Of a stretch of DNA of 64,000 nucleotides, positions 5,551 through 40,498 are shown piece after piece (the stretch's first letter is position 1; the number at the start of each line of letters is the position of its first letter). A program made the translations under genes and the position numbers. The DNA comes from a virus, in the IMG/VR virus record IMGVR_UViG_3300017963_000225, positions 1 to 64,000 of that record, one strand, 5' to 3'. A model generated the notes under the pieces. It was not told the DNA's origin, searched no databases, and was given only the letters and a program-made list of their open reading frames with translations.

Positions 5551-5563
5551 TAAGGAGCAGAAA

Positions 5564-5836: not shown

Positions 5837-5849
5837 TTGGAGGAGTGAA

Positions 5850-11748: not shown

Positions 11749-12398
11749 TAGAGGCTCCCGAACATCGCTGATTTTTCTTCAAGTTTCTTACGAAACTCTC
11801 GCATGCTTGTTGGCAGAACGCCACCCGGATCGTACTTTCGACCGAGTGGAAGCGCTGCCTCGTCGTGACCAGCGATATTCTGCGGATCAATCCCGAGGGC
11901 GATAAACCACAAGCAGACATGCTCAAGCATGGTCACTTGTTTATCGGTCGCTTTGTCCCACCACCACATCTTCCCGTCGATGTTGTCTTTACGATATTCG
12001 GCATCCAATGAATCGACAGGCTCGCCTGACCACGACGACAACGACCCGTCTTCTTTTGATTCGGTCAGCCACCCCCAGCTAACCAACGCGATAGCCACAT
12101 GCCGTCGGTTTGGCGACACGCCGAGCCATGAAGCATTGCCGGCATGAGAAACTGCATTGTTTAGGTAAGCCGTCTGCGTGACCATCCCATCTCTGTCGAT
12201 AATGAGGTGATACCGCAAGTTGTTTTTTTTCAACTCGCGGAACACCCTGGAAATGTCTCGGTCGGCTGTATAATGAATCGTGATGCCTTGCGGACCACTG
12301 CTACCGAAAGAGTTCTTGAGGCCGAGGCCCGGCTCCTCGATTCGACCAACGAATGGGTAAATTGGTGGGATCAATCCATTTTTGGTTTTCGCAGTCAA
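11748..12398 (-). CDS. N-acetylmuramoyl-L-alanine amidase (Amidase_2), putative endolysin
   Basis: ITIHYTA, YHLIIDRDG...Q, SHAG, IAGHDE...RKYDPG. Confidence 0.9.
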   Translation of the reverse strand: MTAKTKNGLIPPIYPFVGRIEEPGLGLKNSFGSSGPQGITIHYTADRDISRVFRELKKNNLRYHLIIDRDGMVTQTAYLNNAVSHAGNASWLGVSPNRRHVAIALVSWGWLTESKEDGSLSSWSGEPVDSLDAEYRKDNIDGKMWWWDKATDKQVTMLEHVCLWFIALGIDPQNIAGHDEAALPLGRKYDPGGVLPTSMREFRKKLEEKSAMFGSL

Positions 12399-12703
12399 CT
12401 TCCCTCCAAATACGCCAAGAGCTTCGTTTTGTATTCAACCGGCAGTGTTGCAGGCGACGGTGGCATGCGTCCACTTTCGATAGCCGCCTTCACCTTCGGC
12501 GTCTTAAACGACGATTTTTTTGATAGGTCGAGCGGTTGTTTGACTCCGTTGTGACATTTAACACACGATTCTTTGACAATTGGCTTGATCGCGTCCCATT
12601 CTGGATCGCCCATCTGTTGGGGGGACGGCTCGCTCGATTCGTCATGGCCGCAACCAGTCGCCAAAAACAAAGCCATAAATAACCAGCCAACAAGCCTGAA
12701 CAT
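12395..12703 (-). CDS. Monohaem c-type cytochrome lipoprotein
   Basis: Start reassigned to ATG 12703 (AGGAG SD); lipobox LATGC; IKPIVKESCVKCH; distal GRMPP Met ligand. Confidence 0.8.
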   Translation of the reverse strand: MFRLVGWLFMALFLATGCGHDESSEPSPQQMGDPEWDAIKPIVKESCVKCHNGVKQPLDLSKKSSFKTPKVKAAIESGRMPPSPATLPVEYKTKLLAYLEGS

Positions 12704-12722
12704 CGTTTTTTTTCTCCTGTAT

Positions 12723-14609
12723 TCATCGTGGATCTTCAAACAGTCTTAGGTCGGCGATCACCGCCTGCAACGCCGTTGCGAACGTCTCGAATGGAATTGT
12801 CCCACCTGCAAAAAGCTGACCCCATTGGCTTCTCGCTGTCTGACTCTGATTGAGAATGATCTGGCACTCGCTCTTTCGTAGCCACAAGGTCCCGCATACC
12901 TTCGCCATATCCCATGGCAGAAGGTGTGAATCAGAAGCTGCCGTCACGGGCTCGGTTTGCGCCGACGTGTCAAGAGTCGTAAACCCGAGTCCTTTGAGCG
13001 ATTCAAAATAGTTGTCGTTCTCCAGTTTGATAAGCTCATTCACAACCGGCTGACTGTCGTACACGGCAAGAATCAGGTCGCGGTCATCCTTAAACTCCGA
13101 GCCATTCGCTGTGACGATAGCTCGTATTTGATCGGTGACTGGAAGGATGCCGGAAGCGTGACAACGGAAGCATGAGATGCCGGCCTGGATCTCTGACGAC
13201 ACAGGACTAACGAAATCACGCACGACGTTGACAGGAGCAACGTTCTGGAGCTGGTCGAGGTCGCTCCTGACAAAAACACCGTTGTTCACTGTCTGGCGAG
13301 CGTTGAACAAAGTGTAGCCTTGCAGTCCGTTCGGCAGCGTGTGGATGCACTCTCCCGCGATAAACTGCGCGTTGAGTTTGCCTCCAACGTCACCCAGTAA
13401 TGGAAAGTTGGAAAATGTTTTTTCTGGCGTGTCTATCGGGCCGGTGTCGTAAGTACACCACAGGCTTCCGTCTCGTGAGTCGTGAACGCTCAACATGCGG
13501 TTGTGAGGCGACAGCGGTGAGCCGACAAAAGCAGCGAGCGTAGCCTCGCGCTGCTGAAGGTCCTTAGCGTAGTCCACGCCGATCTGCTGAATGAACTGAT
13601 CGAAGTTGGCGGCCGTTTCCGTCAGGTTGTAGTAGACGGCAGCATTCCGAAACCCAGCGTCGATTAGTGAGCCGACGTGAAGCCACGGCTTCCGCGTGCC
13701 GGTGAGCAGCTTCAAAAGGTCGCCTTTTGAGGTCCTGCTCTCGATGTTCACCACGTCCGCGTTCTCGACCGCCTGCCATTCGCCGGCGTCGATCGCCACG
13801 TCGTCAAGGTCGAAGCGCCAAATGCCAGGGGCCACCTCGACCAGCTCGGCAAGCTCACGCTCAGTGCTCAGGCTATTGATGGCCTTCAGCGCCGCCTTCT
13901 CGTACAGCTCTAGCTGCTCGTCGGTGCCGCCGCTGTTGATAACGTCAGTCGCGACGAGGTATCGAGTCGTCACCCGGTTTTCAATACTTACCTTTGTCGT
14001 GTCCGTGATGTCCGCGATAATGGCCGCTTCCGACTCCTCGAAGGACTGAAAATCGAAGTCCCCCTCTCCATCACCCGGCTCAGCAGGCGACGGGCAAAGG
14101 CCGTCGATAATCCAATTCTCAAATGCCGAAATCTCATCGTCGGTGAGAGACGAATTTTTCGGCATGTGCTGCGGATCAGAAGGCGCGAGCCTGAAGCGCC
14201 TCAGGTACTCATCTGAGGAATTTTTGGCCTTCTCGAAGCTGTCGTAACCTCGATGGCACGAGCCAGTACAACTGCGCGTCAAAATCGGCTGCACGGTCGC
14301 AAAGGTCGTGTCGCCCGGAGCGCAATCTGGCGGTGGTTGTGTCTCGCAAGAATTCACCGCTTCTTTGTAGCCATCTGCCGTGCATACCAAAACAATGGTG
14401 CCGTCCTCACCCTCGCCGCAATCAAGCTCCTTGGTGCTGCCGATAGGATCGCTGTCGCACGACAACAAAGGCGCGGCGACCTGTACTTGCTCTTTCTCCG
14501 TCGAGCAGCCGGTCAACCTGTCGAGAAACACGGTCAATATCGAGGCGGTGATGAGAATTGTGGACAGTTTAAGCAAACGCCGAGCATCGCGAAGCTGTTG
14601 CTCTGTCAT
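12723..14609 (-). CDS. Large membrane-anchored/lipoprotein c-type cytochrome (two putative haem sites)
   Basis: N-terminal hydrophobic segment ending LTGC; VQPIL..SCTGSCH...HMP...L...EI..F..WI.DG cytochrome domain; second motif SCFRCH. Confidence 0.72.
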   Translation of the reverse strand: MTEQQLRDARRLLKLSTILITASILTVFLDRLTGCSTEKEQVQVAAPLLSCDSDPIGSTKELDCGEGEDGTIVLVCTADGYKEAVNSCETQPPPDCAPGDTTFATVQPILTRSCTGSCHRGYDSFEKAKNSSDEYLRRFRLAPSDPQHMPKNSSLTDDEISAFENWIIDGLCPSPAEPGDGEGDFDFQSFEESEAAIIADITDTTKVSIENRVTTRYLVATDVINSGGTDEQLELYEKAALKAINSLSTERELAELVEVAPGIWRFDLDDVAIDAGEWQAVENADVVNIESRTSKGDLLKLLTGTRKPWLHVGSLIDAGFRNAAVYYNLTETAANFDQFIQQIGVDYAKDLQQREATLAAFVGSPLSPHNRMLSVHDSRDGSLWCTYDTGPIDTPEKTFSNFPLLGDVGGKLNAQFIAGECIHTLPNGLQGYTLFNARQTVNNGVFVRSDLDQLQNVAPVNVVRDFVSPVSSEIQAGISCFRCHASGILPVTDQIRAIVTANGSEFKDDRDLILAVYDSQPVVNELIKLENDNYFESLKGLGFTTLDTSAQTEPVTAASDSHLLPWDMAKVCGTLWLRKSECQIILNQSQTARSQWGQLFAGGTIPFETFATALQAVIADLRLFEDPR

Positions 14610-14650
14610 GGGGCACCTATTGTGTTGTTTATGAGAGAATTATACTGCAC

Positions 14651-15688
14651 TTACAGGAAATAGTGAAACATCAGCGCGCCGCTGTTGGACGCTTCACCTT
14701 GCGAAAAGCTTCGCTTAGCTTGAGCGAGAAGCTCAAAGTGAGGGCGGGGAAACCATGAAGAAAATATTCCGAAACCGTAAAGATCGCCGTTCCTGTCCAA
14801 TGTTGGGCCGAAGTGAACGCCTCGATAATACTCCCAACCTAACTTAGCAACCGCGAGGTCTGTCGCCTCTCCGAATTCAAAATTTCGATCGTACTCAGCC
14901 AAAAAATAAAGGCTTTCGTCGGCGGCGGTAATCACATGCGCTCCGAGCGCCGTCTGCTCCCCGAGCTTGAGAAGGCTGAAACCGACCTGTGTCCTGTCTC
15001 CGAGGTAAAACGCCGACCGCACGGTGCCGCCGCTGCGCTCGCCGGACACAACCACAAATCCGTCGCCATCCGTCCCGACAACCGAGGCTCTCTTCCCGTA
15101 AACGCCGGAAACGAGCACCTCACCCCATTTGGTGACGAGGGCCGCTTCTGCGTTGTATGTCTCGCTGCCCTGCCCGAGCCCTAGCCCAAAGCGCGTTGGC
15201 AGCGTGTGGTCGGGAAAGTTGACGCCATACGCCGGAATGAAACGACCAAACCTAAAGTAAACATTTTCAATCGGTTGCACTTTTAGGTAAGTACGGCGAA
15301 ACTCCGAGTGACTGTCCCGCCCATAGAGGCCGACGGATCCAACCAGGGTAATCCCTTCAAATGGCATCACGGCGGCTTCGAGGTCCTTGTGCATCCAGAA
15401 CGGCCGCCCTTCGTCAGGGACGATCCAGCGGCTGTCGCCGCCGACCTCTACCCACCCGGGCAAGCTGGCGCCGTGGATGACGTTCTCCTCGCCCTTGCGC
15501 GACCAAGTGGTCATGGTCCGGCTCGCGCCGCGTCCATAGGTCGTCAGGACGTTGCCGCCGACCGCGCCAGACACATGGCAGGAAATGCACGACGGATATC
15601 CGTGGCGCACGAACTCTGGAAACGCCACGGATATCGTCGAAAACATCGCGCCGCAAATCAGCGCCGCTATTTGAAGCAAAATCCTCAC
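14651..15688 (-). CDS. Outer-membrane beta-barrel protein with N-terminal haem c motif
   Basis: Signal peptide; FPEFVRHGYPSCISCH...LTTYGR; alternating beta-strand pattern; aromatic C-terminus MFHYFL. Confidence 0.72.
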   Translation of the reverse strand: MRILLQIAALICGAMFSTISVAFPEFVRHGYPSCISCHVSGAVGGNVLTTYGRGASRTMTTWSRKGEENVIHGASLPGWVEVGGDSRWIVPDEGRPFWMHKDLEAAVMPFEGITLVGSVGLYGRDSHSEFRRTYLKVQPIENVYFRFGRFIPAYGVNFPDHTLPTRFGLGLGQGSETYNAEAALVTKWGEVLVSGVYGKRASVVGTDGDGFVVVSGERSGGTVRSAFYLGDRTQVGFSLLKLGEQTALGAHVITAADESLYFLAEYDRNFEFGEATDLAVAKLGWEYYRGVHFGPTLDRNGDLYGFGIFSSWFPRPHFELLAQAKRSFSQGEASNSGALMFHYFL

Positions 15689-16209
15689 TTTGAGATGATC
15701 CCTCTGACGATCACCGTAACATCCTTGGCGACAGTGATTTTCCCGTATTGGGGGATGCCAATCGCCGGATAATCAGTCAACGACACGACAAACTCAGCCC
15801 ACAGCTTGTTTCCCGACAAGCTCGCCAGTCCGCTGATTGGCTTCGTTTGTCCTTTCAGCGTCAGCTTCCCGGTCCAGGCAAATTTGTCTTTTGACACCTT
15901 CACCGGATCAAGAGCCAAGACCGCCTTCGGGTGAGCGGTCGTGTCAAGGTACTTGACCTTCATGTGGTCGTTTCGCAGCTCGTTTCCGGTGTCGAAGTCA
16001 GACAAATCGCACTCGAATGTTCCGCTGACCATTCCCTTCTCGTCAATTTTCCCGACCCCGGTCGCCTTGCCTCCTTTGCCGAATATTTTCACGACGCCAA
16101 GAGTGCTCTCGGCGCGCCATTCAACCTCGGCCCCTAGCTTCGCATCCGTTGCCGTCGCGAAGCTGGCTGAAAACCACGAGCACAGAATGAGAAGAATAAA
16201 ACGAGACAT
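15685..16209 (-). CDS. YceI-family periplasmic lipid/quinone-binding protein
   Basis: Signal peptide; DTGNELRNDHMK..YLD...HP, G.LTLKG.TKP, L.DY..IG.P. Confidence 0.88.
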   Translation of the reverse strand: MSRFILLILCSWFSASFATATDAKLGAEVEWRAESTLGVVKIFGKGGKATGVGKIDEKGMVSGTFECDLSDFDTGNELRNDHMKVKYLDTTAHPKAVLALDPVKVSKDKFAWTGKLTLKGQTKPISGLASLSGNKLWAEFVVSLTDYPAIGIPQYGKITVAKDVTVIVRGIISK

Positions 16210-16217
16210 TCGTCCCC

Positions 16218-16475
16218 TCACTTTTCGATGATTGCGCTGACAAGGGCCAGCACCGATTGCAAGGAACGCTCAGCCACTGCCGTCATCTCTTCGGGAGCGG
16301 CCGACCTAAACTCATCGTCGATTTTATCGCTTCCTTCAATCGCTAGACGAGCCGAAGCAATCAATGGAGCAAACTTCGGAATGTCCATCCAATTAATCAC
16401 GCCGTCGGCCTTGGCAGCCTTGATGGACTTCGCCAGCTCATCCACGAGCGCCAGCATTTCCAGTGTCTCTTTCAT
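16218..16475 (-). CDS. Helical hypothetical protein
   Basis: AGGAGG SD; ADGVINWMD motif; 85 aa. Confidence 0.6.
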   Translation of the reverse strand: MKETLEMLALVDELAKSIKAAKADGVINWMDIPKFAPLIASARLAIEGSDKIDDEFRSAAPEEMTAVAERSLQSVLALVSAIIEK

Positions 16476-16487
16476 CGCATACCCTCC

Positions 16488-17465
16488 TTAGAAAATTTGA
16501 TGAGTAGCCAGACCTCTCAGAAGCAAATAATCAAGCGCCGGCCCGATCCTTGGGCGTTCATCGCTCTCCCATTTGCAACGCTGATGCCGATAAGAATATC
16601 CAGACGATTCAGGGGAATATTCAGCCAGCCACCTCTGCGCTGGCTCTCTTTCGCACCAGTATTCTATCATAGGAACGCCCGTTCCTCGTGTCGCCTGACA
16701 CCAAGACAACCGCGAAAAACTTGAGACGGGCGAGTTGATGGCGTAGGCTGTAATCATCTGTAGCATGTTCAAATGCAGTGGATAGCACGGCTGTTTCGCA
16801 GCGACCGTTCCGCTTGCCGTTGCAATCATGTCTGTTTCAAACCTGTCTTTGGAAACTCGCGGCGCATCGCCAGTGATTCCGAAGAAATTGGCCACGCGAT
16901 CCCAAAGCCACCACAGGCCGCCGTTGATCTGTTTGTCCTCGCCAGCTCCCGGATAAAGACGGCCATTGCCCAATCCAGTCACATAGTCGCGATGCAGGGA
17001 CCACAACGCTGCAATCGCTTCCCTGTCCTCGGGGCATCGCCGCCAGCGCATCACCAGGCCGAAGGCGGTCCCAATCATGGCGTCACGGCTCGTGTCTACT
17101 CGATCAAGAGCTGGGTGGCGGTGAATCCGCCCGTCGTGGCTCGTGATGTTGTCGGCGACCGCTCGGAAAATACTGGCGCCGTCCTCGCACGACAGAACGC
17201 CAATTGCCAGGCCGCTGAATAGTGCGCTGTCGCCGCGCTCGTCTATTTCGTCGCCGTTCCTGGAGATGGGCATGCCTTCGTCGAGAAAGTCGCTGAGCAG
17301 CCTGGACACGAGGGCTTCATACTGATCGGGGACTGGAGCGTTCTCGGACGGCGGCAGGTCCGCTAGTGGGCTTGAAGGGGCGTCCTCATTTTTTCCTTGG
17401 CATCCAGCCAGAAGTAGAGCCGTTAGGAGCGCGCTTCCGATTCTTTTGTTCGCCGCCATAGCCAT
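16488..17465 (-). CDS. Lipoprotein of unknown function (helical enzyme-like)
   Basis: Start reassigned to 17465; lipobox LLAGC; GDSALFSG, GRIHRHP, SRDAMIG motifs. Confidence 0.65.
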   Translation of the reverse strand: MAMAANKRIGSALLTALLLAGCQGKNEDAPSSPLADLPPSENAPVPDQYEALVSRLLSDFLDEGMPISRNGDEIDERGDSALFSGLAIGVLSCEDGASIFRAVADNITSHDGRIHRHPALDRVDTSRDAMIGTAFGLVMRWRRCPEDREAIAALWSLHRDYVTGLGNGRLYPGAGEDKQINGGLWWLWDRVANFFGITGDAPRVSKDRFETDMIATASGTVAAKQPCYPLHLNMLQMITAYAINSPVSSFSRLSWCQATRGTGVPMIEYWCEREPAQRWLAEYSPESSGYSYRHQRCKWESDERPRIGPALDYLLLRGLATHQIF

Positions 17466-17694
17466 AAAGGCTTCTCCCCTCGATGATTTGAAGTCGATGG
17501 TCGTGTTCGTCGATTTCGTCCCGATTGGTCTGAAGCTGAGACACAACCTCAACCATTTTCAAATTCAAATCGTGAAGGCTGGCGCTCATGTCAGACAAGA
17601 ATTTGACGCCGAAACTGCAAAGTCCGATTATGGCCGCGAGAAACAACTGGTAAACGTACTGCGACACGTCTTGAGGAGATGAAGACAATGGCAA
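17386..17694 (-). CDS. Single-TM coiled-coil protein, putative holin/XhlA-like
   Basis: TTG start after GAGGAGG; TM LFLAAIIGLCSFGVKFL followed by a heptad coiled coil ending HDHRLQIIE. Confidence 0.45.
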   Translation of the reverse strand: MPLSSSPQDVSQYVYQLFLAAIIGLCSFGVKFLSDMSASLHDLNLKMVEVVSQLQTNRDEIDEHDHRLQIIEGRSLYGYGGEQKNRKRAPNGSTSGWMPRKK

Positions 17695-17701
17695 ACCCTC
17701 C

Positions 17702-18052
17702 TCATAAGTCCCTTCTTCTCTTTTCAAATCCCGATTTGAAAGGGACCGCCTCGTCGTAAAAAACCGGCTCAGGATCTTGGCTAGGAACGTCAATAATAAG
17801 CGGCTCAAGGTAATCGCCTTGCCCAAGGTAAACCGCCTCACTCAAGCATGAGTATTCAACGCTTTTGTCGTCGCCGCACTCTTTCAAGGAAAGACCGCAA
17901 TCCTCTTGGAGGTATTTGTCGCAAATGATTACGTCACCTCCAATGGACCATATTTCCCTTTGCTTTACCGGCTTCCCAGAAGCCGAGCATGCGCCGATCC
18001 ATGACGCGGCGCATACGACTAGGAAGTAAATGAGTGTATGGTGCATCGTCAC
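17702..18052 (-). CDS. Small Cys-containing lipoprotein
   Basis: Lipobox-like WIGAC; four further Cys residues. Confidence 0.55.
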   Translation of the reverse strand: MTMHHTLIYFLVVCAASWIGACSASGKPVKQREIWSIGGDVIICDKYLQEDCGLSLKECGDDKSVEYSCLSEAVYLGQGDYLEPLIIDVPSQDPEPVFYDEAVPFKSGFEKRRRDL

Positions 18053-18059
18053 ACTCCTA

Positions 18060-19253
18060 TTAGAACCGTCCCATCAAAATCCAACGGCTAAGCGTGCCGT
18101 TGTAGATAGCCATGACTGACCCGCGAATTCCGAACGCAATAGAGTTATTTTGTGTGCAGGCACTGCCGGCAGTTGTTGACCATTCGATCCTTGAAGACGA
18201 GCTGCCCTCGGATGACGAATTGCATACAATGCTCATCGTTTGCCCCGAGGCATTGTTGATGACCATCATGTGCCCATCCGACACGAAAGTGCCGATTCCG
18301 TGGACCGCGAATGGAGATGTCGCTGTTATGAAATTTATGTAACCAGTCGTCGGGTTTAAGTTGTTATGGTCCCAGTTTCCGGTTGAGGCTACGTTAACGT
18401 TGTAATTTTCTAGCCTCGTAGTTCCCAGACTTAGATAGGCTGTCCCCCTAATGACATGCTGAACTCCTCCGCCAGATGGCCCTAAAGTCCAAGCACCGGC
18501 CGGACTTGTTTCCCCGATATTTACGCCGTTTCCAGAGAAGGCGATCTGGTCAGCGCCAGGGCTGAAAATGCCTGTATTCAAGTCTCCTAGGATCGAGAAA
18601 GCCGGAGCTGATACCGAACCTCCAGCTGCTGCTACTTGCCCGTTGCCGTAGATGATGAACTTGTCAGTAGATGTGTTCGTCCTTACCTTCAACACCTCTT
18701 GAGAGACGCTGTTGGAGGCACTTGTTACTTGAAGACCGAAGCCTGTAGCTGAGGTGTTGAAGATCCGAGCGATCCAGTTGCCTGGTACGGACGAGCTTGC
18801 CTCTAACAAATAGGTTGGCGAGGTTGTCCCGATTCCGACATTCCCGCCACTGTCTATTCGCATGCGCTCAGTGTCGTTCGACCGAAGAACAAATGGGTGA
18901 TTTGTTGTCGTTCCGACATACATCGTGGTGTCGGTGCCGTTGTAGCCAAACACCCCTTGAACGGTCGCATCTCCGCGTCTGACAATCAGGTTGTCATTGT
19001 CGCCGGCTGCTCCTGTCCCGGTAACGACCATCGTCGTTGTGGTGGACTGTCCCGTAATGTCAAGTCCAAGCAAGGCGTTGAGAGAGCCGGTCGCTCCATC
19101 AATCGACATCGCCTTCGTCGGCGTGCCGCTCGGTGACACGTAGAAATCCATATCCTGATCGGTCTTGGTTTCCTTGATCGTCCAAGCGCCGGCAAGCGAA
19201 GCAAGTCCAACCAAAAAACATGAAGCCACGATGGCGCGGCTTAACCTCTTCAT
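18060..19253 (-). CDS. Tail-fibre-like adhesin with signal peptide
   Basis: MKRLSRAIVASCFLVGLASLAGA signal; ERMRIDSGGNVGIGTTSP and GSVSAPAFS..GDLNTGIFSPGADQIAF fibre shaft motifs. Confidence 0.75.
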   Translation of the reverse strand: MKRLSRAIVASCFLVGLASLAGAWTIKETKTDQDMDFYVSPSGTPTKAMSIDGATGSLNALLGLDITGQSTTTTMVVTGTGAAGDNDNLIVRRGDATVQGVFGYNGTDTTMYVGTTTNHPFVLRSNDTERMRIDSGGNVGIGTTSPTYLLEASSSVPGNWIARIFNTSATGFGLQVTSASNSVSQEVLKVRTNTSTDKFIIYGNGQVAAAGGSVSAPAFSILGDLNTGIFSPGADQIAFSGNGVNIGETSPAGAWTLGPSGGGVQHVIRGTAYLSLGTTRLENYNVNVASTGNWDHNNLNPTTGYINFITATSPFAVHGIGTFVSDGHMMVINNASGQTMSIVCNSSSEGSSSSRIEWSTTAGSACTQNNSIAFGIRGSVMAIYNGTLSRWILMGRF

Positions 19254-19277
19254 AAAAACACCTCCATTCGCTTCGGA

Positions 19278-19499
19278 TTATTCTTTGTCGCAGTCGATAA
19301 TCATGTTGCTGTGATTGGCTCGATCGCCGTCTACGTCCCACAATACGACAACGCACTTGTGTCCAAGATAGTTTGTTCCGTACACCTGACTGGAAAAATT
19401 ATTCCCATCGATTTTTCCAAGATGCTCTACGCCGCTTGGCTGCATTGTTGCACAACCGGAAGCGAGCATAATGCCAATGCTGAATACAACAAGTTTCAT
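19278..19499 (-). CDS. Small lipoprotein
   Basis: MKLVVFSIGIMLASGC lipobox. Confidence 0.65.
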   Translation of the reverse strand: MKLVVFSIGIMLASGCATMQPSGVEHLGKIDGNNFSSQVYGTNYLGHKCVVVLWDVDGDRANHSNMIIDCDKE

Positions 19500-19509
19500 A
19501 GCGCCCTCG

Positions 19510-19578
19510 TCACGTTTTGATGATGTAGTTCACGGTCAGGAACGGGTACGGCCGTTCACGCTCGCTTGCACTGGTCAT
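19510..19578 (-). pseudogene. 22-aa minigene or remnant encoding a second tail-collar C-terminal motif
   Basis: MTSASERERPYPFLTVNYIIKT*, paralogous to the GPAVVVNYIVKY* end of the upstream gene. Confidence 0.6.
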
Positions 19579-19585
19579 GCCGACC

Positions 19586-20509
19586 TCAATACTTGACGAT
19601 ATAGTTCACGACGACGGCTGGACCGACGTTGCTGAATGCAGTGCCACTTCCGGTTGTCCCGGTAACGCCTGTGTAATTTGGTAGGTCAACGCTATGCAGA
19701 TGCGACGAACCTGGCCCGGAAGTCCCGCTGAAATTTGGCGGATCGATGCTGTGGCTGTGCGATCCGTCTGCTTCGGTCTGCTCGGTTGAGTCAGCGCCGA
19801 CGCCAGTCACGCCTCGGATCAGAGATTGACTGCCGCCAGTTGAACGGCTTGTCGTAATGATGTGAGCATGAGGACCGTCGTTAGCTGATGAGAATGCTCC
19901 GTGGTCGTGACTAATGCTATGATTATGCCCACTCTCGGACGAAGAGTTCTGCGCAGCATGGTTGTGATCGTTCGTATGGTTGTGCGACGGCAAATTAGCT
20001 GTAGCGAGAGACGATGATTGCGATCCGCCTGACGCCCCGAGAGTCACACCGTCGACTCCAGATCCACCAGATGTGAGGCGATTCGCCGCAACGCCTCCCA
20101 TATTGTCCTTTCCGAATGCAGCGCGCCCGCGCATATCGGGGATATTAAACGTAGTCGTTCCGTTCCCGGCACCGTAGGATGTCCCGATGGCAGCGAACAG
20201 AGCCGCGTAGGTCGTGCGTGACACGGCCGTGCCATCGGCCAGAAGCCATCCAGTCGGAGCAGACGAGCCCGCAAAGGGCATCAAGGCCCCAGGAGGGACG
20301 CCGCCTGATGACGCTGGAAGCGGCTCGGTCAACGAAACGACGCCGCTCGCGCCAGAGATGCTCATCACATCCTTGACGGTGCCGCCGCTGTTGACCCGGA
20401 TGACGACGTTTCCGTTGTTGTCTGGATTGTAGATAACCCTGTCGCCTGCGAAGGCGGGTAGTGAGGAAACTCCAAGTCCGAAAAGTAGAGAAATGAGAAA
20501 ACTTTTCAT
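19586..20509 (-). CDS. Phage tail-collar domain fibre protein with signal peptide
   Basis: MKSFLISLLFGLGVSSLPAFA signal; PPGALMPFAG..APTGWLLADG.AVSRTTYAALFAAIGT.YG.G.G.TTFN.PD.RGR collar; HxH metal-binding needle repeats; VNYIVK end. Confidence 0.9.
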   Translation of the reverse strand: MKSFLISLLFGLGVSSLPAFAGDRVIYNPDNNGNVVIRVNSGGTVKDVMSISGASGVVSLTEPLPASSGGVPPGALMPFAGSSAPTGWLLADGTAVSRTTYAALFAAIGTSYGAGNGTTTFNIPDMRGRAAFGKDNMGGVAANRLTSGGSGVDGVTLGASGGSQSSSLATANLPSHNHTNDHNHAAQNSSSESGHNHSISHDHGAFSSANDGPHAHIITTSRSTGGSQSLIRGVTGVGADSTEQTEADGSHSHSIDPPNFSGTSGPGSSHLHSVDLPNYTGVTGTTGSGTAFSNVGPAVVVNYIVKY

Positions 20510-20525
20510 TACTTGCCTCTATGTA

Positions 20526-21413
20526 TTACTGATAATTTGCACAAAGACACGCCCTGGTTCCAGAAGTCGTGGCGCAGCTCACACTGGTTGATGTGATTCT
20601 GACGGCGGCTATACAGATTACGCCGCTGCCAGAGTTCAAACATGCAGTGTCACAGGTGTCCCCTCCATTCGAGGCAGTAACTGCGAACATACTGACGGCT
20701 CCGATGGCCACTCCTGTCGTCACTCCGTAAGCGGGCACATAAAACTTTCCAGTCGTTCTGACCTCTTGTGAGCCAAAATCAGGAGATATTTTTGTACCGG
20801 CGATTGCTGCCGAAGCACTGACGTGAGTATTACTCACCGCGCTTGATGCCAATTCAGACGAGGTAATGGCGTTCGCGCCAATCTGTGTAGACGTCAAAGT
20901 GTCGTTAACGAGCTTGCCGCCAGTAATCGTGGTGTTGGCGATCTTGCCACCTGTGATCGTGGTGTTAGCGATATCACCGTCAGCGATCGTGCCGTCCAAA
21001 ATGTTCGTACTGTTTATGATGCCCGTACCACCGATGGCGGACGAGAATGTCTTCGCTCCGCTGATCGTCTGCGTTCCCTGCTTCATTACGAAGTCTTGAT
21101 CGGCTGTCGCCGAGCTTGGGAAGTTGACTGTGGTGCTTATTCCGGTGCCGCCGAGCGTCTTGGACAGAGGAGTCGTGAGGCCGGTGACTGTCGTGGTGCT
21201 CAGTCCATACGGTGCGGATATTGCGCCAGTCGATCCAGTGACCGTCAAGGCGTCCGTCTTTACTCCGTTGTCGTTGACGCGCAGAACTAGATCGCCGTCT
21301 ACTGCCGGATTTTCGATAACCCGGCGTGTTCCAGTGTTGCTATCCGCGAGCGCGATGCTCGTCAAAAAAAACGCCAAAAAACAGACAAAATAAACTAGGC
21401 AAAACTTACGCAT
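20526..21413 (-). CDS. Fibre-like protein with signal peptide and Cys-rich tip
   Basis: Start reassigned to 21413 (TGATG coupling); MRKFCLVYFVCFLAFFLTSIALA signal; QTISGAKTFS and ITGGKIANTT shaft repeats; six-Cys C-terminus. Confidence 0.7.
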   Translation of the reverse strand: MRKFCLVYFVCFLAFFLTSIALADSNTGTRRVIENPAVDGDLVLRVNDNGVKTDALTVTGSTGAISAPYGLSTTTVTGLTTPLSKTLGGTGISTTVNFPSSATADQDFVMKQGTQTISGAKTFSSAIGGTGIINSTNILDGTIADGDIANTTITGGKIANTTITGGKLVNDTLTSTQIGANAITSSELASSAVSNTHVSASAAIAGTKISPDFGSQEVRTTGKFYVPAYGVTTGVAIGAVSMFAVTASNGGDTCDTACLNSGSGVICIAAVRITSTSVSCATTSGTRACLCANYQ

Positions 21414-23575
21414 CAAATCGTACCTCCCCATACTTCGACGCTCCCCGCGACACCATCGTTGTCCACCAGATCGATATTCGTAATCGCCGCTGATCCGTTG
21501 GTTTTGTGAACATTCACCCTCACAAAAGCACGGTTGGCCGCAGCATCCACATAAACTGGGTCTGTGAACGTCTGCGCTGCATTCAGCTCAAGCAAGCACT
21601 GCTCAACCACACAGTTGACAGCCTCGACGCTGAGCCCGCGAGCCTGCGTGCCTGACGGTGTGAGCTGGAAGCGTGAGCGACCGAGCACCGCCACCCGCGC
21701 AGCCGTCAACCGCACGCCATTGGTGAGTGCTCCCGATAGCCGCACCTGCGCGTCCCTGGCAAAGACGATCTGGAGGCCGGCGACATTGATGTCGAGGTCC
21801 CCAGCCGGCTCATCGGTGTCCCGCTGTACGAGGATTTGGTCATTGATGCCGCTGGCCGCGATTGCATCCGTCAGCGTAGTGTAGGTTCCTGGACCTCTGC
21901 CGACCACCCGCGTCATGCCGCCCTGGTCGTATGGCACCGCCTGAAGCAGCGGACGGCCGCCGACGCAAATGCGATATGCTAGGGCATCACCCGAGCCCGC
22001 CTCGACGAATGGCACGCCCACCCAATCGAAATTGAAGTTGGTGTCGTCGAAGCTCTCGACGATCGCGCTGCGGTCGATGTTGCGAATGGCGCCCGTGACG
22101 AGGTTTTTCTCCTGCACCTCGTAGGAACGCACCAGCTCGTAGTCGGCAACCCCGTGAGCGACCGAAGCAGGGCCAGCAGCCGTGTACCAGCCGAATGGCC
22201 CGGTGTCTGTCGCGGGCGAGGCCACCGTCTTTAGATCCGGGTAGTAGTAGGCGACGACATACAGTGTGCGCCCACCGCCATATCCAGGTGAAGGCACGCT
22301 GTCAGGATTGATTTTGACCTGCGTCAAGCTTTTGGCGACGACGAAGTTGAGCCAGTCCTGTGGCTTGTTCTCCGTGCCGTCATACCAGTACGCTTCAAAC
22401 CACTGCGGCTGCCCTGAGAGGTTGTGGCCAAGCGTCTGCTCGCCACCGGCTGCCGTGAAGCTGAACACCTTGCGCTCGACATAAGGGAAGAAGGACGCCA
22501 CGGTGTCGTGAACGCGGCCAGGCTTTTGATAAACCTCGCTTCCAGTCCAGTCCACCCCGCCGACCGCCGTCTTGATCTGGTCAATATAGACGTAGCGGCG
22601 AGGATCAAGGTTTTCCGGGTCGTGCGTGGTGTGCGGGAAAAGGCGCAGGTTAGCCTCTCCCCACTGAAGGATTTTGCGCTTGGTGTCCGTCATGCGGACG
22701 GGATCGCTCAAGGTCGCGAGGTCGATCGCCAGCGTATAAAGCGTGTCAGCCGCAAAAACCAATCCGCTATTGGTAAGAATAGTCGCTGCGCTCACCGAGA
22801 GGTTGACGCCGGTTAGCGTCTTGGTGAGGCCCGCCGTGCCACTGGCAAGCACCCGGCTGTCGTCGAGCGGATAGAAGCCGCCTTTGATGGCCAGTGTGGT
22901 GCCGGCCGCGTTCGTCACCTTGTAGGTGCGGTCACTGCCGCCACCGCCGCCGCCGCCAGCGCCGAAGCGGTAGATGCGGATATCGCTTCCGACCTTGTTC
23001 TGGATCACCGACGAAGCCGAGCCCGCTGTCTTGAAGGCATTTGCAGCCGTCGCTTCAAGGTCGATCCATCCAAGCGGCAAGCCCTCCAACGCGCTGAAAA
23101 GGGCGCCTGGGTTTGCCGTCGTGTCAGCGTTGAGCGTGGTCATGTCGGCAAACGCCGAGCTAAATTTTGCAGCGAGGCTGCCGTCGCTCTGGAGCGCAAA
23201 GCAGCAGCGCCGCACCTGGCCGACGGTGGTCGTCGGCAAGGCAAAGGCTACGCCGTCCACCGTGACGACAACACCACCAGACACGACGCCGGTTTGAAAA
23301 TTGATGGTGAAGCCGACCGGCGTGAATGGAACGATGTCGTCAACCGGAGGAACGGCCTTCCCGCTGCCGTCGCCAGCTTCGATGAGGGCCGAGGCGAAGT
23401 TGAGCAGGGCATCTGGAGTCGCACTCGCGAACATCCTGAGGGGTGACTCAAAATGTTTGTCAAGTCGCGGCAAAAACCCAGTTTCCAGGTTTTCGCCGGC
23501 TACAGCCCCTATCACCGACCTCGCCGCAAGCAGTTTAAGCTCGTCGGTGAAGCCTTTCTGAAGGTTGATTGTCAT
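21413..23575 (-). CDS. Virion structural / tail appendage protein with C-terminal beta-helix-like region
   Basis: Position after the baseplate genes; poly-Gly hinge; GTYTTLTDAIAA..NDQILV motif typical of the start of a beta-helix. Confidence 0.55.
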   Translation of the reverse strand: MTINLQKGFTDELKLLAARSVIGAVAGENLETGFLPRLDKHFESPLRMFASATPDALLNFASALIEAGDGSGKAVPPVDDIVPFTPVGFTINFQTGVVSGGVVVTVDGVAFALPTTTVGQVRRCCFALQSDGSLAAKFSSAFADMTTLNADTTANPGALFSALEGLPLGWIDLEATAANAFKTAGSASSVIQNKVGSDIRIYRFGAGGGGGGGSDRTYKVTNAAGTTLAIKGGFYPLDDSRVLASGTAGLTKTLTGVNLSVSAATILTNSGLVFAADTLYTLAIDLATLSDPVRMTDTKRKILQWGEANLRLFPHTTHDPENLDPRRYVYIDQIKTAVGGVDWTGSEVYQKPGRVHDTVASFFPYVERKVFSFTAAGGEQTLGHNLSGQPQWFEAYWYDGTENKPQDWLNFVVAKSLTQVKINPDSVPSPGYGGGRTLYVVAYYYPDLKTVASPATDTGPFGWYTAAGPASVAHGVADYELVRSYEVQEKNLVTGAIRNIDRSAIVESFDDTNFNFDWVGVPFVEAGSGDALAYRICVGGRPLLQAVPYDQGGMTRVVGRGPGTYTTLTDAIAASGINDQILVQRDTDEPAGDLDINVAGLQIVFARDAQVRLSGALTNGVRLTAARVAVLGRSRFQLTPSGTQARGLSVEAVNCVVEQCLLELNAAQTFTDPVYVDAAANRAFVRVNVHKTNGSAAITNIDLVDNDGVAGSVEVWGGTI

Positions 23576-23606
23576 GAACTAACTCCTTGAGAAATCTTAT
23601 GATACC

Positions 23607-25274
23607 TCAGACGTTCACCACGAGCACTTCGATACGAGAGGTGTTGTTCGGGACACTCGTAAAATCAACGCGAGCCGGTGACAAATTGCGGTTCCAAGCA
23701 ACCGTTTCTGGTTGTTTGCGACCGTCCACCCACACCATCACCTTTGTGGTCGCGGTGATAGGCTGAGCCAGGGCAAACTGCGATGCAACGCCATCTGCGA
23801 CAAAGGACTCCTCAGACAGCGGCACAAATCGGCGCCGATAAGCTGGCGCAAGGGCCAGGCTGTCCGTTGGGACGATTCGCCCGACAATAATCACCGGCTC
23901 ATTGGTAAGGAAGCCCGCAAGGCTCTGAGTCACCCCACCAGGAGACGATCGGCTTAGGTAAGCATCTTCGCCGGTCGTGAGCGAAGAAAAACCAGGGACG
24001 ATGGCACCGCGCCTGAACGTGACCCGCCCAGGATCGCCGTCGGCAATCGACTCCGCGGTTACTCCTAGTTCCTTCTTCTCGATGTCGGCTATTTGGGCGT
24101 GCGCCAGCTTGAAACTGCCATCGGTATGAATGTAGACAATCTTGCCGGCAGGCACCGTCTCACCTTCACTATTGATGAGCACAAGGTCGTCGTCACGTTG
24201 CACCTGGGTGCCGCCACCGCCCTTGATGCCACCGCCAGTGAGAAAAGTCGCCGTCGCGATCTTCTGCTCGGTAACGGCATTGTTTGCAAGCTTGCCGTTG
24301 TCAACGGCACCTGCTTGGATCGTCGCGGTGCCGCCAATAGCGATGAAAACGTCGCCGCTGATTGTGATTGCAACGGCATCGCCGCTACCGTTGCCCTGAA
24401 TGAACTGACCAGCCGGAACGAAGGCGAGCGTAATATCGTTCAGAGTGCGTGTCAGAAAACCCGATGCGGTCACGTTCTCGAAGTTTTTCTTCGTCCATGT
24501 CGCGCCGCCGAAGAAATAAAATCCATCACTTTCGTCATCGGCGCTGACATACGTTCCGACGCGATTTGGCGTCCCAGGAAAGTCAGTGAATACCCACTGT
24601 GCGCCATCCCATTCGGCGATATCTCCGTCGTGACCGGCCCAATCGCCAACGGCGACAGCCGCGCCAGTGTCGAGGCCAATCAAGTAGCGGTCGCCGGTAG
24701 CTGGCGCGAGCGGTGATGGATCGGTCAGCCCCGTGTCGATCACGGAATCTTGCCACTCCGACGCATCGCCGGCCGCCGCCACGAGGTTGACGACAAAATC
24801 GCGCGTTGCGGCGTGATGCCCGAGAGTTGGTGCCCCGAGATTCGATATGACATAGCCGCCCATCGACAGGGCGCCTTCCATGGGCTCGGAGCCGTCCCTG
24901 GCAAGCCGCGTGTCGGCGTTCGCTTGCGCCGTGTTCGCTTGCGTCATGGCTTCGGCGAGCGCCGTCTCGACGTTCGCGCCGGCAAACAACGCGCCACTGT
25001 CGTCGATGAAAATTTGAACAGCGCGATGCTTTTCTAGGATATCGTTGGCAAGATGCAAGTCGAGGGAGTCGCCGTCGCCATCAGGATCACGACCATTGAT
25101 GGTCGTGACGTTGACGAATGCTGACCCTAGAAAATCGAAGTCGCTTCCGGTTTCCTTGATGCGAAGACCGGTCCCGATGCCGATTTCAAGAAACCTTGGC
25201 TGAGTTTGGTCGGATCGCCTCTGGACGACTTGTACGCCTTCCAGGAGTGCTAAAATTACGTTTGCCGCTGCCAT
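23607..25274 (-). CDS. Virion structural / fibre protein
   Basis: L.RDGS..M.G.L.MG...I.NL..P....AAT..FV fibre motif; GDRYLIG...WAGHDGDIAEW (DUF2793-like); DUF2190-like region. Confidence 0.65.
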   Translation of the reverse strand: MAAANVILALLEGVQVVQRRSDQTQPRFLEIGIGTGLRIKETGSDFDFLGSAFVNVTTINGRDPDGDGDSLDLHLANDILEKHRAVQIFIDDSGALFAGANVETALAEAMTQANTAQANADTRLARDGSEPMEGALSMGGYVISNLGAPTLGHHAATRDFVVNLVAAAGDASEWQDSVIDTGLTDPSPLAPATGDRYLIGLDTGAAVAVGDWAGHDGDIAEWDGAQWVFTDFPGTPNRVGTYVSADDESDGFYFFGGATWTKKNFENVTASGFLTRTLNDITLAFVPAGQFIQGNGSGDAVAITISGDVFIAIGGTATIQAGAVDNGKLANNAVTEQKIATATFLTGGGIKGGGGTQVQRDDDLVLINSEGETVPAGKIVYIHTDGSFKLAHAQIADIEKKELGVTAESIADGDPGRVTFRRGAIVPGFSSLTTGEDAYLSRSSPGGVTQSLAGFLTNEPVIIVGRIVPTDSLALAPAYRRRFVPLSEESFVADGVASQFALAQPITATTKVMVWVDGRKQPETVAWNRNLSPARVDFTSVPNNTSRIEVLVVNV

Positions 25275-25284
25275 TAGTGCCTCC

Positions 25285-27330
25285 TTACGGCGCTGCCAAG
25301 ATGATCTGATGCTTCATGATGAGGTCGGTCACTATCGTGCTCGCGATCCCCTCCGTGCAATCAGCCCAGCCAACGAAAACTATCTCGTCGTCGCCACCAG
25401 TAAATCCGGCAGAGTTGTTGACGTAGTTTCCGTTTTCGTCGATGTAAACCTTGTCTCCTGGAGCAAAACCGCTGCCAACAAGTACTCCTGGTATGTTCCG
25501 GCCGAACATCATGACTCGGCCACTTCCCGCTGATGCGATAGCTTCGAGCGCGATGCCAAACATGTTCTTGCCAGTCGAAGCGTCCGAATCGGCCGGGAAG
25601 ATGCCGCCAGTGAGCTTGTCGATAGAAACGACCTTGCCAGCCGGAATCACGGCAACGTGGCCGTTAACCTTGATCTTGATATCGCTCAGGTTAGCCAGCG
25701 TTTCCCTGTAGACGAGTTTTCCAACCGTGAGCGTGTCGATGTGACCTTCGTTGAATCGATTCAGGGACGATCCGAGATTAAATCCAAGATCAGGTGGCAG
25801 GATGTTGCTGTCCACGGGATCGGACCACAAATTTCCAGCGCTCGGAGCAGCCGGTCCACCATAGGTGGTCCCTTCTTTGCGGATTTTTACAACGCTGCCA
25901 ATACCTGGCGGACTAAAAAAATCGACCGTCGAAATGCTGATTTTTCGATAGTGCCGATCAGCAGCGAGCGCGCCTGTTTCTGATTGATTTTGACCACGCC
26001 CATCTACACTGACAATGTTGTCTTTCTTTGTGTTATCCGTGCTGAACGTGAAGCTGGACACCGTAAACTGCGTCGTCACGCCGTCGCCAGAAAAATATTC
26101 TTCTTTTGGCTCGTTGTTTTGTAGGGCGCCGACCTCGTTGTCGAGCTTGCTTATGGCTTCAGGGTACGTGTCCGCCGAGTCAATCACAGCGGTTGACGTG
26201 TATGCCTGATAGCTGTTTTCGCCGGTGATGCCGAGACGTGTCCGCAGAGCGCTTGGCAGGTCCTGGCCGATAACCGCTGTCTCACCGCTGTCCAGCTCGG
26301 GAATATCCATCGCACCGGCAATGCGGGTGCCCTTGCGGTAGAAGAGGACGACAATACGAGGCGAGTGGCCAACATCAGTTGGATTGACGGGAACGCTCGT
26401 CAACGGCGACACGACCGGCGCTAGCGGGCCAGGACCAGTCTCGGGGATATCGACGTAGACGCACTCGCCATCGAGCAGCGTCAGGCTGTCGGCCGGCACG
26501 AGGTAGTTCTGCGCTCGGCCTGCCATGGCGATTTCAATGTCAGAGGTCCACTCTAACGTGTCCGCTCCAGCCGTCCCTTCCCACTGCACAGGCGATCCTG
26601 GCAGGAACATCAGGTTTTGATATTCCCGAAGCAGCTTCAAGCTCGACCAGGGCATGCTTTCGATAGCCTGCCCCGTCCCCTTCACCTCGCCGACGATCGC
26701 GCCGAGAAAGTCGATAAAGAGCCGCAGGTCCTTTAGGTCGTCGAAAATATCGACCCGTGAGCTGGCGGCAGGCAGGGCGATTGCACGATTCTTCCACAGA
26801 AGGTCATCAGCAGGCGTGACGCTATCGATTGATCCGGCCGACGTGACGACAATAAACAGAGGGACAGCGCCTGGCGTAAACCCGGAGGTGTTCGATTGAA
26901 CTGCGTCATCGAGACGACGACGAACATTGATGTCGTCGAAGTATTCTTCGCCGGTCAGTCCAATGTCAGTGTCCCAAAAAGCCCTTGTCTGTAAATCATC
27001 GGTAAATGAATCAACACGCACTTCGACGTAGTTGGTTGTGTTGTCGGCGAGCGTGGTGTCAAGCGTCGATCCCGGAGAATCGGGCGACTTGATGATCCAC
27101 TCTTGGTTGCTGTCGTGGAATGCGCGATTTTCGTCCTTCTTTAGCTTGAAGACGAGGCCGGCATGTGTCCCCTGCTGGTAGCGTTTGACTACTCGGCGGG
27201 CGCCATTGTCGATGTATGTTTTGACAAGAAAACGAAAATCATCGAAAGCACGGTCGAGCATCGCCCGAAAATCAGGAATATCGACGCGAATATTGCCTTC
27301 AAAATTTCCCCGCTGCCGGTCAACAGTCAT
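25285..27330 (-). CDS. Baseplate-associated structural protein
   Basis: Follows the wedge genes; GDGVTTQF module and C-terminal DUF2190-like region. Confidence 0.6.
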   Translation of the reverse strand: MTVDRQRGNFEGNIRVDIPDFRAMLDRAFDDFRFLVKTYIDNGARRVVKRYQQGTHAGLVFKLKKDENRAFHDSNQEWIIKSPDSPGSTLDTTLADNTTNYVEVRVDSFTDDLQTRAFWDTDIGLTGEEYFDDINVRRRLDDAVQSNTSGFTPGAVPLFIVVTSAGSIDSVTPADDLLWKNRAIALPAASSRVDIFDDLKDLRLFIDFLGAIVGEVKGTGQAIESMPWSSLKLLREYQNLMFLPGSPVQWEGTAGADTLEWTSDIEIAMAGRAQNYLVPADSLTLLDGECVYVDIPETGPGPLAPVVSPLTSVPVNPTDVGHSPRIVVLFYRKGTRIAGAMDIPELDSGETAVIGQDLPSALRTRLGITGENSYQAYTSTAVIDSADTYPEAISKLDNEVGALQNNEPKEEYFSGDGVTTQFTVSSFTFSTDNTKKDNIVSVDGRGQNQSETGALAADRHYRKISISTVDFFSPPGIGSVVKIRKEGTTYGGPAAPSAGNLWSDPVDSNILPPDLGFNLGSSLNRFNEGHIDTLTVGKLVYRETLANLSDIKIKVNGHVAVIPAGKVVSIDKLTGGIFPADSDASTGKNMFGIALEAIASAGSGRVMMFGRNIPGVLVGSGFAPGDKVYIDENGNYVNNSAGFTGGDDEIVFVGWADCTEGIASTIVTDLIMKHQIILAAP

Positions 27331-27345: not shown

Positions 27346-28707
27346 CTAAATGATGCTAAAGGTGATTCTTACGCCAGTGACCTTGACGCGCCGCAGCAGG
27401 TTGAAGAATTGATTTCTGAGCGAATCTGTATCGTTCAGAAAAAAGGCCCAATCCGTGCCATCAACATTTGGAGTTGTCTTGCGCGCCATAAGCTGAACTT
27501 TCTCGCCAACGGCGTGGTCTTCTTTGAAAACGTAATCAGGATCAATGACAATCTTAGTGTTGTCACCAAATTTACGCGAGCGAAACGGTATATCCTCGGC
27601 GTTGCCGAACGACACGTTGAGCTTAGCGGCGGCTTGATAGTCAAGCGGAAAATCAGCCGAGTTTGCCACAGTTAGCTCGGCAAACGAGCCGCCAGCGGCG
27701 ATGTTCTGCCCGAGAGTAGTCATGGTCTTTCGAGTCATATTAGGAATCGACACCGACTCCCCTGACGAATGCGGATAGACGGTCACACCTTCCAGCGTGA
27801 CGGTCGATCCAACGCGAGAAAACCCCTTCGTCTCGAAGGTCGCCCCTTCTGGATCGCCGATATACATGATTCCAATCTCTGGCACGTTCTCGTATGTCGA
27901 GCCCAAATCAAAAGACGACACCCCTGCCGCGTAGCTCCCCAGGATTTCCGATTTTTTCTGCGGGTAATACAAATATCCTGAAGGATAGTCGTCTGGATCT
28001 TGTGGACCCTCGACGGCCGCTCCAGCGGCATAGTCGTTTTTTGTTGGGCTAAAGAACGTGAGAATCGATCCGACCCTAGAAAACCCCTTAATCTCCGTCG
28101 GAGACAAAGTGATAAGCCCGCTTATTGGGACGTTCGTCGTGTCCGACAACGCGACCGACAGCGACCCCGCTAAAGCCGGTGCTGCCAGTGTGGTTGACCA
28201 CGTTAGCGCGCCGAAGCCATCGAAGTGGCCAGTGTTCTCTTGGTGAAGGTAGGTTGTCCCGTAAAGCGAGCGGGACGAAGCGATAATCAATGCGTTCGAT
28301 TTTATCTCAAGGACGATTTCATTTTTGCGGTACGAGTAAATATCGACCAGGCCAGAATCGAAAGCAGAGTCGCCAAAGAACAACTTGATGAGACGCTCGA
28401 AAATGTACTCGATGTTCTTTTGCGTGTTTGTGACGATTTTTATGAGTTCGCGATATTTCGCGTCACTCATGTTGTATCCACGCAGCCGGAATAAATCGAC
28501 GTTTACTCCGTGGACCTGGAGGTATTTCCCGGCTGCCGTGGCGAGCAGGAACTGCTTCCGGTACTCCTTTACGTCGTCAGAGGCTTGATTCATTTCGTCG
28601 CCCGTTGTCTCCAACAGGATCGAAATGCCCTGGCCGCTTTTCAGTTGATAGAAAGGTCGCGGGAAATACCGCTCTAACGCTTTCTTCTTGTCGATAAAGT
28701 CAACCAC
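27346..28707 (-). CDS. Baseplate wedge protein (gpI/gp7-like)
   Basis: FLLATAAGKYL..HG...R...MSDAKYRELI motif; immediately after the baseplate J-like gene. Confidence 0.7.
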   Translation of the reverse strand: MVDFIDKKKALERYFPRPFYQLKSGQGISILLETTGDEMNQASDDVKEYRKQFLLATAAGKYLQVHGVNVDLFRLRGYNMSDAKYRELIKIVTNTQKNIEYIFERLIKLFFGDSAFDSGLVDIYSYRKNEIVLEIKSNALIIASSRSLYGTTYLHQENTGHFDGFGALTWSTTLAAPALAGSLSVALSDTTNVPISGLITLSPTEIKGFSRVGSILTFFSPTKNDYAAGAAVEGPQDPDDYPSGYLYYPQKKSEILGSYAAGVSSFDLGSTYENVPEIGIMYIGDPEGATFETKGFSRVGSTVTLEGVTVYPHSSGESVSIPNMTRKTMTTLGQNIAAGGSFAELTVANSADFPLDYQAAAKLNVSFGNAEDIPFRSRKFGDNTKIVIDPDYVFKEDHAVGEKVQLMARKTTPNVDGTDWAFFLNDTDSLRNQFFNLLRRVKVTGVRITFSII

Positions 28708-40495: not shown

Positions 40496-40498
40496 GAG

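Follow-up and report, generated by a model that had tools for sequence, protein, structure and literature searches.

In the textbook view, tailed phages are assembled wholly in the cytoplasm of the infected cell. The end-to-end gp34-gp37 fibre of T4 and the tailspikes of CBA120 and G7C illustrate a common design, in which a stub is followed by exchangeable distal parts that share N-terminal adaptors; in T4, the fibre is attached at the end of assembly, and the reaction can be reproduced in vitro with lysates. To our knowledge, all multi-part fibres described in tailed phages fold and assemble in the cytoplasm, without leader peptides. In filamentous phages (Ff), the receptor binder pIII carries a Sec leader and is oxidized by the Dsb functions of the host before joining the particle, and some phages, such as T5 (Llp) and lambda (Lom and Bor), export proteins that are encoded beside their receptor-binding genes. 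Among bacteria, Bdellovibrio bacteriovorus produces mosaic adhesive trimer (MAT) fibres, which combine a Sec leader, a conserved N-domain of ~130 amino acids (aa), a phage-like trimeric shaft, and swappable tips, some of them ending in S74 (PMC10769870). Here, we describe three fibre genes, P1, P2, and P3, in the first 64 kb (positions 1 to 64,000; the window) of IMGVR_UViG_3300017963_000225, a virus record that is complete at 91,634 bp and carries direct terminal repeats. Each encoded fibre starts with a Sec-type leader followed by a shared module, and we propose that the three are distal tail-fibre tips that mature in the periplasm. Full-text literature searches retrieved no paper describing Sec-exported tailed-phage fibres, and within the literature searched, the strategy is thus undescribed, as an earlier note on this DNA, made from the sequence alone, had supposed.

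The three genes lie on the minus strand and close the baseplate/fibre operon. P3 (20526-21413, 295 aa) comprises a signal peptide (residues 1 to 23; 21345-21413), the module (residues 24 to 69; 21207-21344), a repeat shaft, and a tip with 6 cysteines within the last 45 residues. P2 (19586-20509, 307 aa) has its signal peptide at residues 1 to 21 (20447-20509) and its module at residues 22 to 61 (20327-20446), followed by a tail-collar domain and a needle rich in HxH runs; it has no cysteine. In P1 (18060-19253, 397 aa), the signal peptide (residues 1 to 23; 19185-19253) precedes a divergent module (residues 24 to 63; 19065-19184), a GNVGIGT-type shaft, and a C-terminal domain of unrecognized fold with 2 cysteines. 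The collar domain of P2 matches PF07484 (1e-23; 83.4 bits versus a gathering cut-off of 24), which is matched by neither P1 nor P3, and P2 also matches PHROG tail families and the long tail fibre of PDB 8kec (1e-5). Residues 120 to 237 of P1 match the Bdellovibrio MAT structures 8ond (6.6e-6), 8ojn, and 8oml. Peptidase_S74 (PF13884) is present in none of the three, and an ESM Atlas search with P3 returned nothing beyond weak viral fibre look-alikes. The shafts and tips are unrelated to one another, and the description given in the earlier note (a Cys-rich tip, a collar with an HxH needle, and a GNVGIGT shaft behind signal-like N termini and a shared module) fits the three genes.

The N termini of P3, P2, and P1 resemble canonical leaders, with 1 to 3 basic residues, a hydrophobic core of 14 to 17 residues, and the sites ALA/D, AFA/G, and AGA/W, respectively (the slash marks the predicted cleavage). 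A custom heuristic classed all three as Sec leaders of the signal peptidase I type: the n-region is basic, the core falls within 7 to 17 residues, positions -3 and -1 are small, and there is neither a lipobox cysteine at +1 nor a twin arginine. The start codons are backed by ribosome-binding sites (RBS), GGAGG lying 9 nucleotides (nt) upstream of the P3 ATG at 21413, and AGAGG and GGAGGTG lying 6 to 7 nt upstream of the ATGs of P2 (20509) and P1 (19253). A P3 start at ATG 21431 was rejected, as ATG 21413 has the GGAGG and overlaps the stop of the upstream 720-aa gene. True starts downstream of the hydrophobic segments, which the earlier note had set beforehand as one of the outcomes that would overturn its reading, were not found either, since the stretch that separates hydrophobic segment and module contains no RBS-backed in-frame ATG, GTG, or TTG in P1, P2, or P3. 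P1 was also considered as a lipoprotein and rejected, as the core before the apparent lipobox is too short and the site is not kept in the orthologue. Over codons 1 to 23, P1 differs from this orthologue (L038:10001-11080, in a sister phage) by 13 synonymous and 6 non-synonymous changes, and the hydrophobic core contains 13 synonymous changes and only 2 replacements, both conservative. The dominance of synonymous changes and the conservative nature of the core replacements indicate that the P1 leader is translated and under purifying selection.

The module is what the three proteins have in common. In the whole 91.6-kb genome, there are exactly three copies, each of them behind a leader and each scoring 72 to 74 bits against the module profile, and no leaderless copy was found. 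The mature N termini of P1, P2, and P3 align with those of three sister-phage fibres, P3 matches a sister-phage fibre across leader and module (BLASTP, 2e-10), and the divergent P1-type module is tied to the P2 and P3 types via intermediate sequences in the wider family. We searched 1.84 billion representative proteins with a profile of 41 positions that covers the mature part only, leaders excluded, and found matches in 357 proteins (clusters at 50% identity) at E ≤ 0.001, 42 of them at E ≤ 1e-10; a word-based search with the profile added one member. This family has no name in Pfam. The position of the module was analyzed in 154 proteins (the matches listed plus a few added family members): in 111 of them it begins at residue 16 to 43, right behind a hydrophobic leader, and in 13 it is N-terminal without a leader. 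Three N-terminal subtypes recur, of the forms AFA/GDRVIINP... (as in P2), AD...TGG.RVIENP... (as in P3), and GA/WTIKETK... (as in P1). The median length of the leader-bearing members is 264 aa. Their C-terminal parts vary widely, and 12 of 110 end in S74, a chaperone domain characteristic of phage fibres and spikes. Two cysteine-rich tip types, neither of which has a Pfam family, recur in the collection. An 8-Cys domain (...GGNVPHAC...GGGC...CC[DR]Y, at the extreme end) occurs in P0131, P0261, and P0273, which bear leaders and differ in N-terminal subtype, and a 6-Cys type is common to P3, fibre B of L038, and P0296.

The cysteine content of the family bears on the compartment in which these fibres fold. 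An even-Cys bias is well known from proteins whose disulfides form in an oxidizing compartment. Once the leader is set aside, cysteine is absent from 26 of 110 leader-bearing members; another 75 have an even count and 9 an odd one (binomial P value, 4e-14), whereas the leaderless fibre homologues retrieved by the same searches include 60 with even and 142 with odd counts (Fisher P value versus the leader class, 2e-21). The window obeys the rule, with 6 cysteines in P3, 2 in P1, and 0 in P2. The even parity of the leader class suggests oxidative folding outside the cytoplasm. Judged from leaders and parity, P1, P2, and P3 are highly likely to be exported by Sec, and the fibre tips very probably fold in the periplasm and not in the cytoplasm.

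The candidate partner of the module is encoded immediately upstream. The 720-aa structural protein (21413-23575, minus strand) has no leader, and we propose that it forms the proximal stub of the fibre, with the predicted docking site at its conserved C terminus (residues ~698 to 719), which terminates in VWGG. Viral-contig scans of IMG/VR and JGI metagenomes, in which P1, P2, P3, the 720-aa protein, and two alignments of the family served as queries, revealed two true relatives, L038/L041 and L047; the other matches were ordinary leaderless fibres that share shaft repeats. In all three phages (the window, L038 at 5543-7615, and L047 at 325-1005), the homologue of the 720-aa protein is followed by a gene for a module-bearing fibre and keeps the extreme C terminus ...DG.A....VWGG. 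In L038, this slot is occupied by a leaderless protein with the module from residue 9 and a collar/HxH tip like that of P2; its open reading frame (ORF) starts 2 nt past the upstream stop and admits no extension, and the next two fibres both carry leaders. From this arrangement, leaderless and leader-bearing versions appear interchangeable in position, adaptor, and tip class.

Structure prediction is consistent with a contact between the two proteins. The earlier note had proposed docking to the products of 21413-27330, and we modelled the product of 21413-23575 as a complex of 3 copies of stub residues 545 to 719 with 3 copies of P3 residues 24 to 110, using custom alignments. The complex scored 0.84 (runs: 0.92, 0.00, and 0.84) versus 0.00 for the best of three controls; in the calibration of the tool, the 0.84 mark was attained by 58 of 80 solved complexes and by 2 of 110 mismatched pairs. 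At least 2% of the contacts agree among the runs, and the partner reached a predicted local distance difference test (pLDDT) score of at least 71. The modelled interface joins stub residues 676, 698, and 701 to 719 with P3 residues 28 to 38 and 43, the most conserved stretch on either side. The C-terminal 175 residues of the stub have pLDDT values of 80 to 92 in the complex model, whereas the monomer model of the C-terminal domain has a mean of 66, with the last 29 residues disordered; a segment that folds upon binding would fit this behavior. A fold search with this monomer model gave no match at E ≤ 0.001, the likeness to right-handed beta-helix enzymes being weak. On the strength of these models, we lean toward the view that the module is an adaptor that binds the stub C terminus.

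We propose the following route for these fibres. P1, P2, and P3 would be synthesized as Sec precursors of alternative distal tail-fibre tips. The precursors would cross the inner membrane of a diderm host in an unfolded state, cleavage by signal peptidase I after ALA, AFA, or AGA would expose the shared ~40-aa module at the N terminus of the mature protein, and the fibres would trimerize in the periplasm, with disulfides forming where cysteines are present; these three steps appear well supported. A search of the phage genes found no DsbA or thioredoxin-like gene, so oxidation would depend on the host. Meanwhile, the leaderless 720-aa stub would be built into the baseplate in the cytoplasm. 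The module would serve as the adaptor, its conserved core (R-V-I-E-N-P in P3) plugging end to end into the stub C terminus when stub and tips meet, either once the holin breaches the inner membrane or in the lysate. Because stub and tips would be separated until the inner membrane opens, attachment of the fibres would be the last step of assembly and coupled to lysis. Three tips with one adaptor would compete for one stub, giving particles of mixed specificities, and small disulfide lipoproteins, whose genes follow those of the fibres, may act as periplasmic fibre chaperones. We give the whole chain, from export through periplasmic maturation to attachment at lysis, an even chance of being correct. 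The fuller picture, in which some tailed phages have Sec-routed tips that mature in the periplasm and snap onto tip-less particles at holin opening to make them infectious at lysis, and tips with a shared adaptor compete to yield mixed host specificity, is plausible but falls slightly short of that.

Several points weigh against this proposal. Attachment after lysis would face a falling concentration of the partners. P2 lacks cysteine, and tips of its class are also found on leaderless proteins, which implies that export is not required for the folding of every tip. In 30 of the 154 proteins analyzed for module position, the module is an internal, often repeated motif in the shafts of long leaderless phage fibres, and it may thus simply open the shaft instead of serving as a dedicated adaptor. 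Of the three complex runs, one scored 0.00, few contacts are common to the runs, and the 0.84 score comes from a job of 3 plus 3 chains with custom alignments, which is unlike the set on which the tool was calibrated. Finally, the leaders were read from the sequence and scored with the custom heuristic instead of SignalP.

The earlier note had offered two readings, that the phage equips its host with adhesins or decoys and that the fibres mature in the periplasm and dock onto virions. The Cys parity, the leaderless copy in the L038 slot, and the complex model favor the second, and the first is kept as the strongest rival, in the form that the exported proteins stay apart from the particle and act instead at or within the envelope of infected cells or in the lysate, for example by masking receptors against superinfection, by coating receptors on debris and thereby sparing progeny, or as adhesins. 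The fibre genes do adjoin an 11-kb block of clearly non-virion exported proteins (YceI, c-type cytochromes, and a CAP-domain lipoprotein), exported phage proteins such as T5 Llp and lambda Lom are known beside receptor-binding genes, and the other leaderless fibre-like genes of the phage could encode its receptor binders. However, a decoy or adhesin would not need a module held at the exact mature N terminus in more than 100 clusters. The module also occurs in a leaderless fibre that takes the corresponding slot in a sister phage, and it is predicted to dock on the upstream structural protein. Moreover, Sec export by itself leaves a protein in the periplasm of a diderm cell and not on its surface, and P3 is translationally coupled to a structural gene. 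We consider this alternative unlikely, though it deserves to be kept in mind.

A second alternative, which we regard as improbable, is that the hydrophobic N termini are not used for export, and that the fibres fold in the cytoplasm or on the cytoplasmic side of the membrane and join the particle, whether or not this segment is retained. Cytoplasmic folding is the sole route known for tailed-phage fibres, and a collar/HxH tip like that of P2 folds in the cytoplasm in other phages. Against this, short cores of 14 to 17 residues with AXA sites typify cleaved signals and not membrane anchors, the 75:9 excess of even cysteine counts in the leader class versus 60:142 in leaderless homologues is hard to explain without an oxidizing compartment, and a hydrophobic extension of 23 residues would sit on the predicted docking residues 28 to 38. 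Equally improbable is a derivation from host surface-fibre genes like the MAT adhesins of predatory bacteria, which the phage would have taken up as accessory genes for remodelling the surface of its host: the architecture (leader, conserved N-domain, fibre, and swappable tip with or without S74), the match of the P1 shaft to 8ond, 8ojn, and 8oml, and, as a lead only, a neighboring cytochrome gene that is most like genes of Myxococcota and less so of Bdellovibrionota would suit it, but no relative of the module was found by two pattern scans over 185,579 prokaryote species genomes, ordinary phage fibres often contain the shaft repeat, the module has ~40 aa and not ~130 aa, and gene order and coupling bind the genes to the tail operon.

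The genomic context places the fibre genes at the end of a tail operon. The genome encodes on its minus strand a major head protein, a tail sheath, a tube, a baseplate hub, and a baseplate-J wedge protein, and the presence of sheath, tube, hub, and baseplate-J genes identifies the phage as contractile-tailed (a myovirus). Baseplate J is followed by the leaderless fibre-like genes 27346-28707, 25285-27330, 23607-25274, and 21413-23575 and then by P3, P2, and P1. The ATG of P3 overlaps the stop of the 720-aa gene (TGATG), coupling the two translationally. A scan for promoters and terminators gave nothing above chance, and co-transcription with the tail operon is therefore suggested by coupling and spacing only. 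A tRNA-Ser with the unusual anticodon ACU (40498-40572, minus strand; ARAGORN) immediately follows the tail-tube gene.

Directly after the P2 stop, at 19510-19584 (minus strand), lies a 22-codon remnant that ends in PYPFLTVNYIIKT and a stop codon. It copies the canonical C-terminal end of tail-collar fibres, whereas P2 itself ends in ...VVVNYIVKY. The remnant looks like the fossil 3' end of a tail-collar tip that was displaced by recombination.

Two small lipoprotein genes are interleaved with the fibre genes, a position that among cytoplasmic fibres is that of assembly chaperones. One encodes a 73-aa lipoprotein between P2 and P1 (19278-19499, minus strand), with the lipobox LASGC and 2 cysteines beyond the lipid-modified one. 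The other encodes a 116-aa lipoprotein (17702-18052, minus strand) with 4 further, conserved cysteines; it has homologues at L038:9747-10004 and L047:2719-2970, the former flanked by the two genes for exported fibres in the sister phage. Both could be periplasmic fibre chaperones or Llp-like receptor blockers.

By the same heuristic, 10 of the 109 ORFs of the genome bear leaders, and 9 of these 10 fall within 10457-21431, next to an amidase gene and further candidate lysis genes. Past the fibre genes, a run of ~8 kb in this late/lysis region (10457-17552, minus strand, the amidase gene among them) forms a block of exported accessory proteins. Besides YceI (PF04264), it encodes a membrane-anchored cytochrome of 628 aa, an exported protein of 345 aa that carries an N-terminal CxxCH, and two lipoproteins, one of them monohaem and the other with a CAP domain. 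A coiled-coil protein with a single N-terminal membrane helix (17386-17841, minus strand) overlaps the start of a lipoprotein gene (16488-17468, minus strand; LLLAGC lipobox, ~325 aa), an arrangement kept in the sister phage (L038:14330-14704 and 14628 onward). The pair is laid out like an i-spanin and o-spanin, although the lipoprotein is unusually large for that.

The host can be approached through these neighbors. The 628-aa cytochrome gene is most like genes of Myxococcota (Atlas score, 0.93), and together with the lipoproteins and a beta-barrel-like exported protein, it points toward a diderm host, as a lead only, with Myxococcota the one lineage suggested. The phage is just a distant relative of isolated ~90-kb myoviruses. 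Its sheath and capsid are 25 to 28% identical to theirs, whose spread over several hosts permits no host call, and searches of isolated phages with the fibres yielded nothing beyond short shaft matches. The whole stretch is present in one sediment and one seawater metagenome run, either of which is possibly the source of the record itself, and no RNA sequencing run was listed as holding it.

If the proposed route is correct, it would add a compartment and a timing step, the opening of the holin, to phage morphogenesis, and it would account for Cys-rich fibre tips. Host Sec, signal peptidase, and Dsb functions would become phage dependency factors, the engineering and production of such fibres would call for periplasmic expression, and the annotation of leader-bearing "hypothetical proteins" at the ends of tail operons would change. 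One stub domain and three short adaptors make a compact test system within a large family (357 clusters, with leaders on most of those analyzed). Elsewhere, an unrelated P2-like 64-kb viral contig (L033, also L034), with gpV/W/J/I-type baseplate genes upstream and endolysin and holin-like genes downstream, encodes a tail-collar protein (L033:7599-8657) and a 449-aa protein (L033:8936-10285), each with a clear Sec-type leader and an N terminus different from the module. Going by these leaders, it is an independent case of the leader-bearing fibre theme.

Compared with described systems, the architecture of P1, P2, and P3 is reminiscent of that of the MAT fibres, with a leader, an N-terminal module, a shaft, and differing tips, and with S74 at the end of 12 of 110 family members. 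However, MATs are chromosomal proteins displayed on the surface of a predator, whereas the P1, P2, and P3 genes sit in the late/tail operon of a phage, in a terminally repeated virus record, and the MAT N-domain, described as beta-rich, spans ~130 aa, three times the length of the ~40-aa module. Subtypes A and B of the module had no relative in the two pattern scans, which covered one genome for each of 185,579 prokaryote species, so that, as far as tested, the module does not belong to a borrowed chromosomal adhesin family. The parallel with Bdellovibrio drawn in the earlier note thus extends to the architecture and to the shaft sequence of P1. Like T5 Llp and lambda Lom and Bor, the lipoproteins at 19278-19499 and 17702-18052 adjoin receptor-binding genes; unlike P1, P2, and P3, the Llp, Lom, and Bor proteins are not fibre-like and have no adaptor in common with virion fibres. 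The filamentous-phage pIII bears no sequence relation to the fibres described here, and filamentous phages assemble at the membrane during extrusion, whereas a contractile-tailed particle assembles in the cytoplasm. In its layout, the system resembles the fibres of T4, CBA120, and G7C, with a proposed stub, distal parts that carry a common predicted adaptor, and, at 19510-19584, a probable trace of a tip swap; it differs from them in that every distal part of this phage has a leader.

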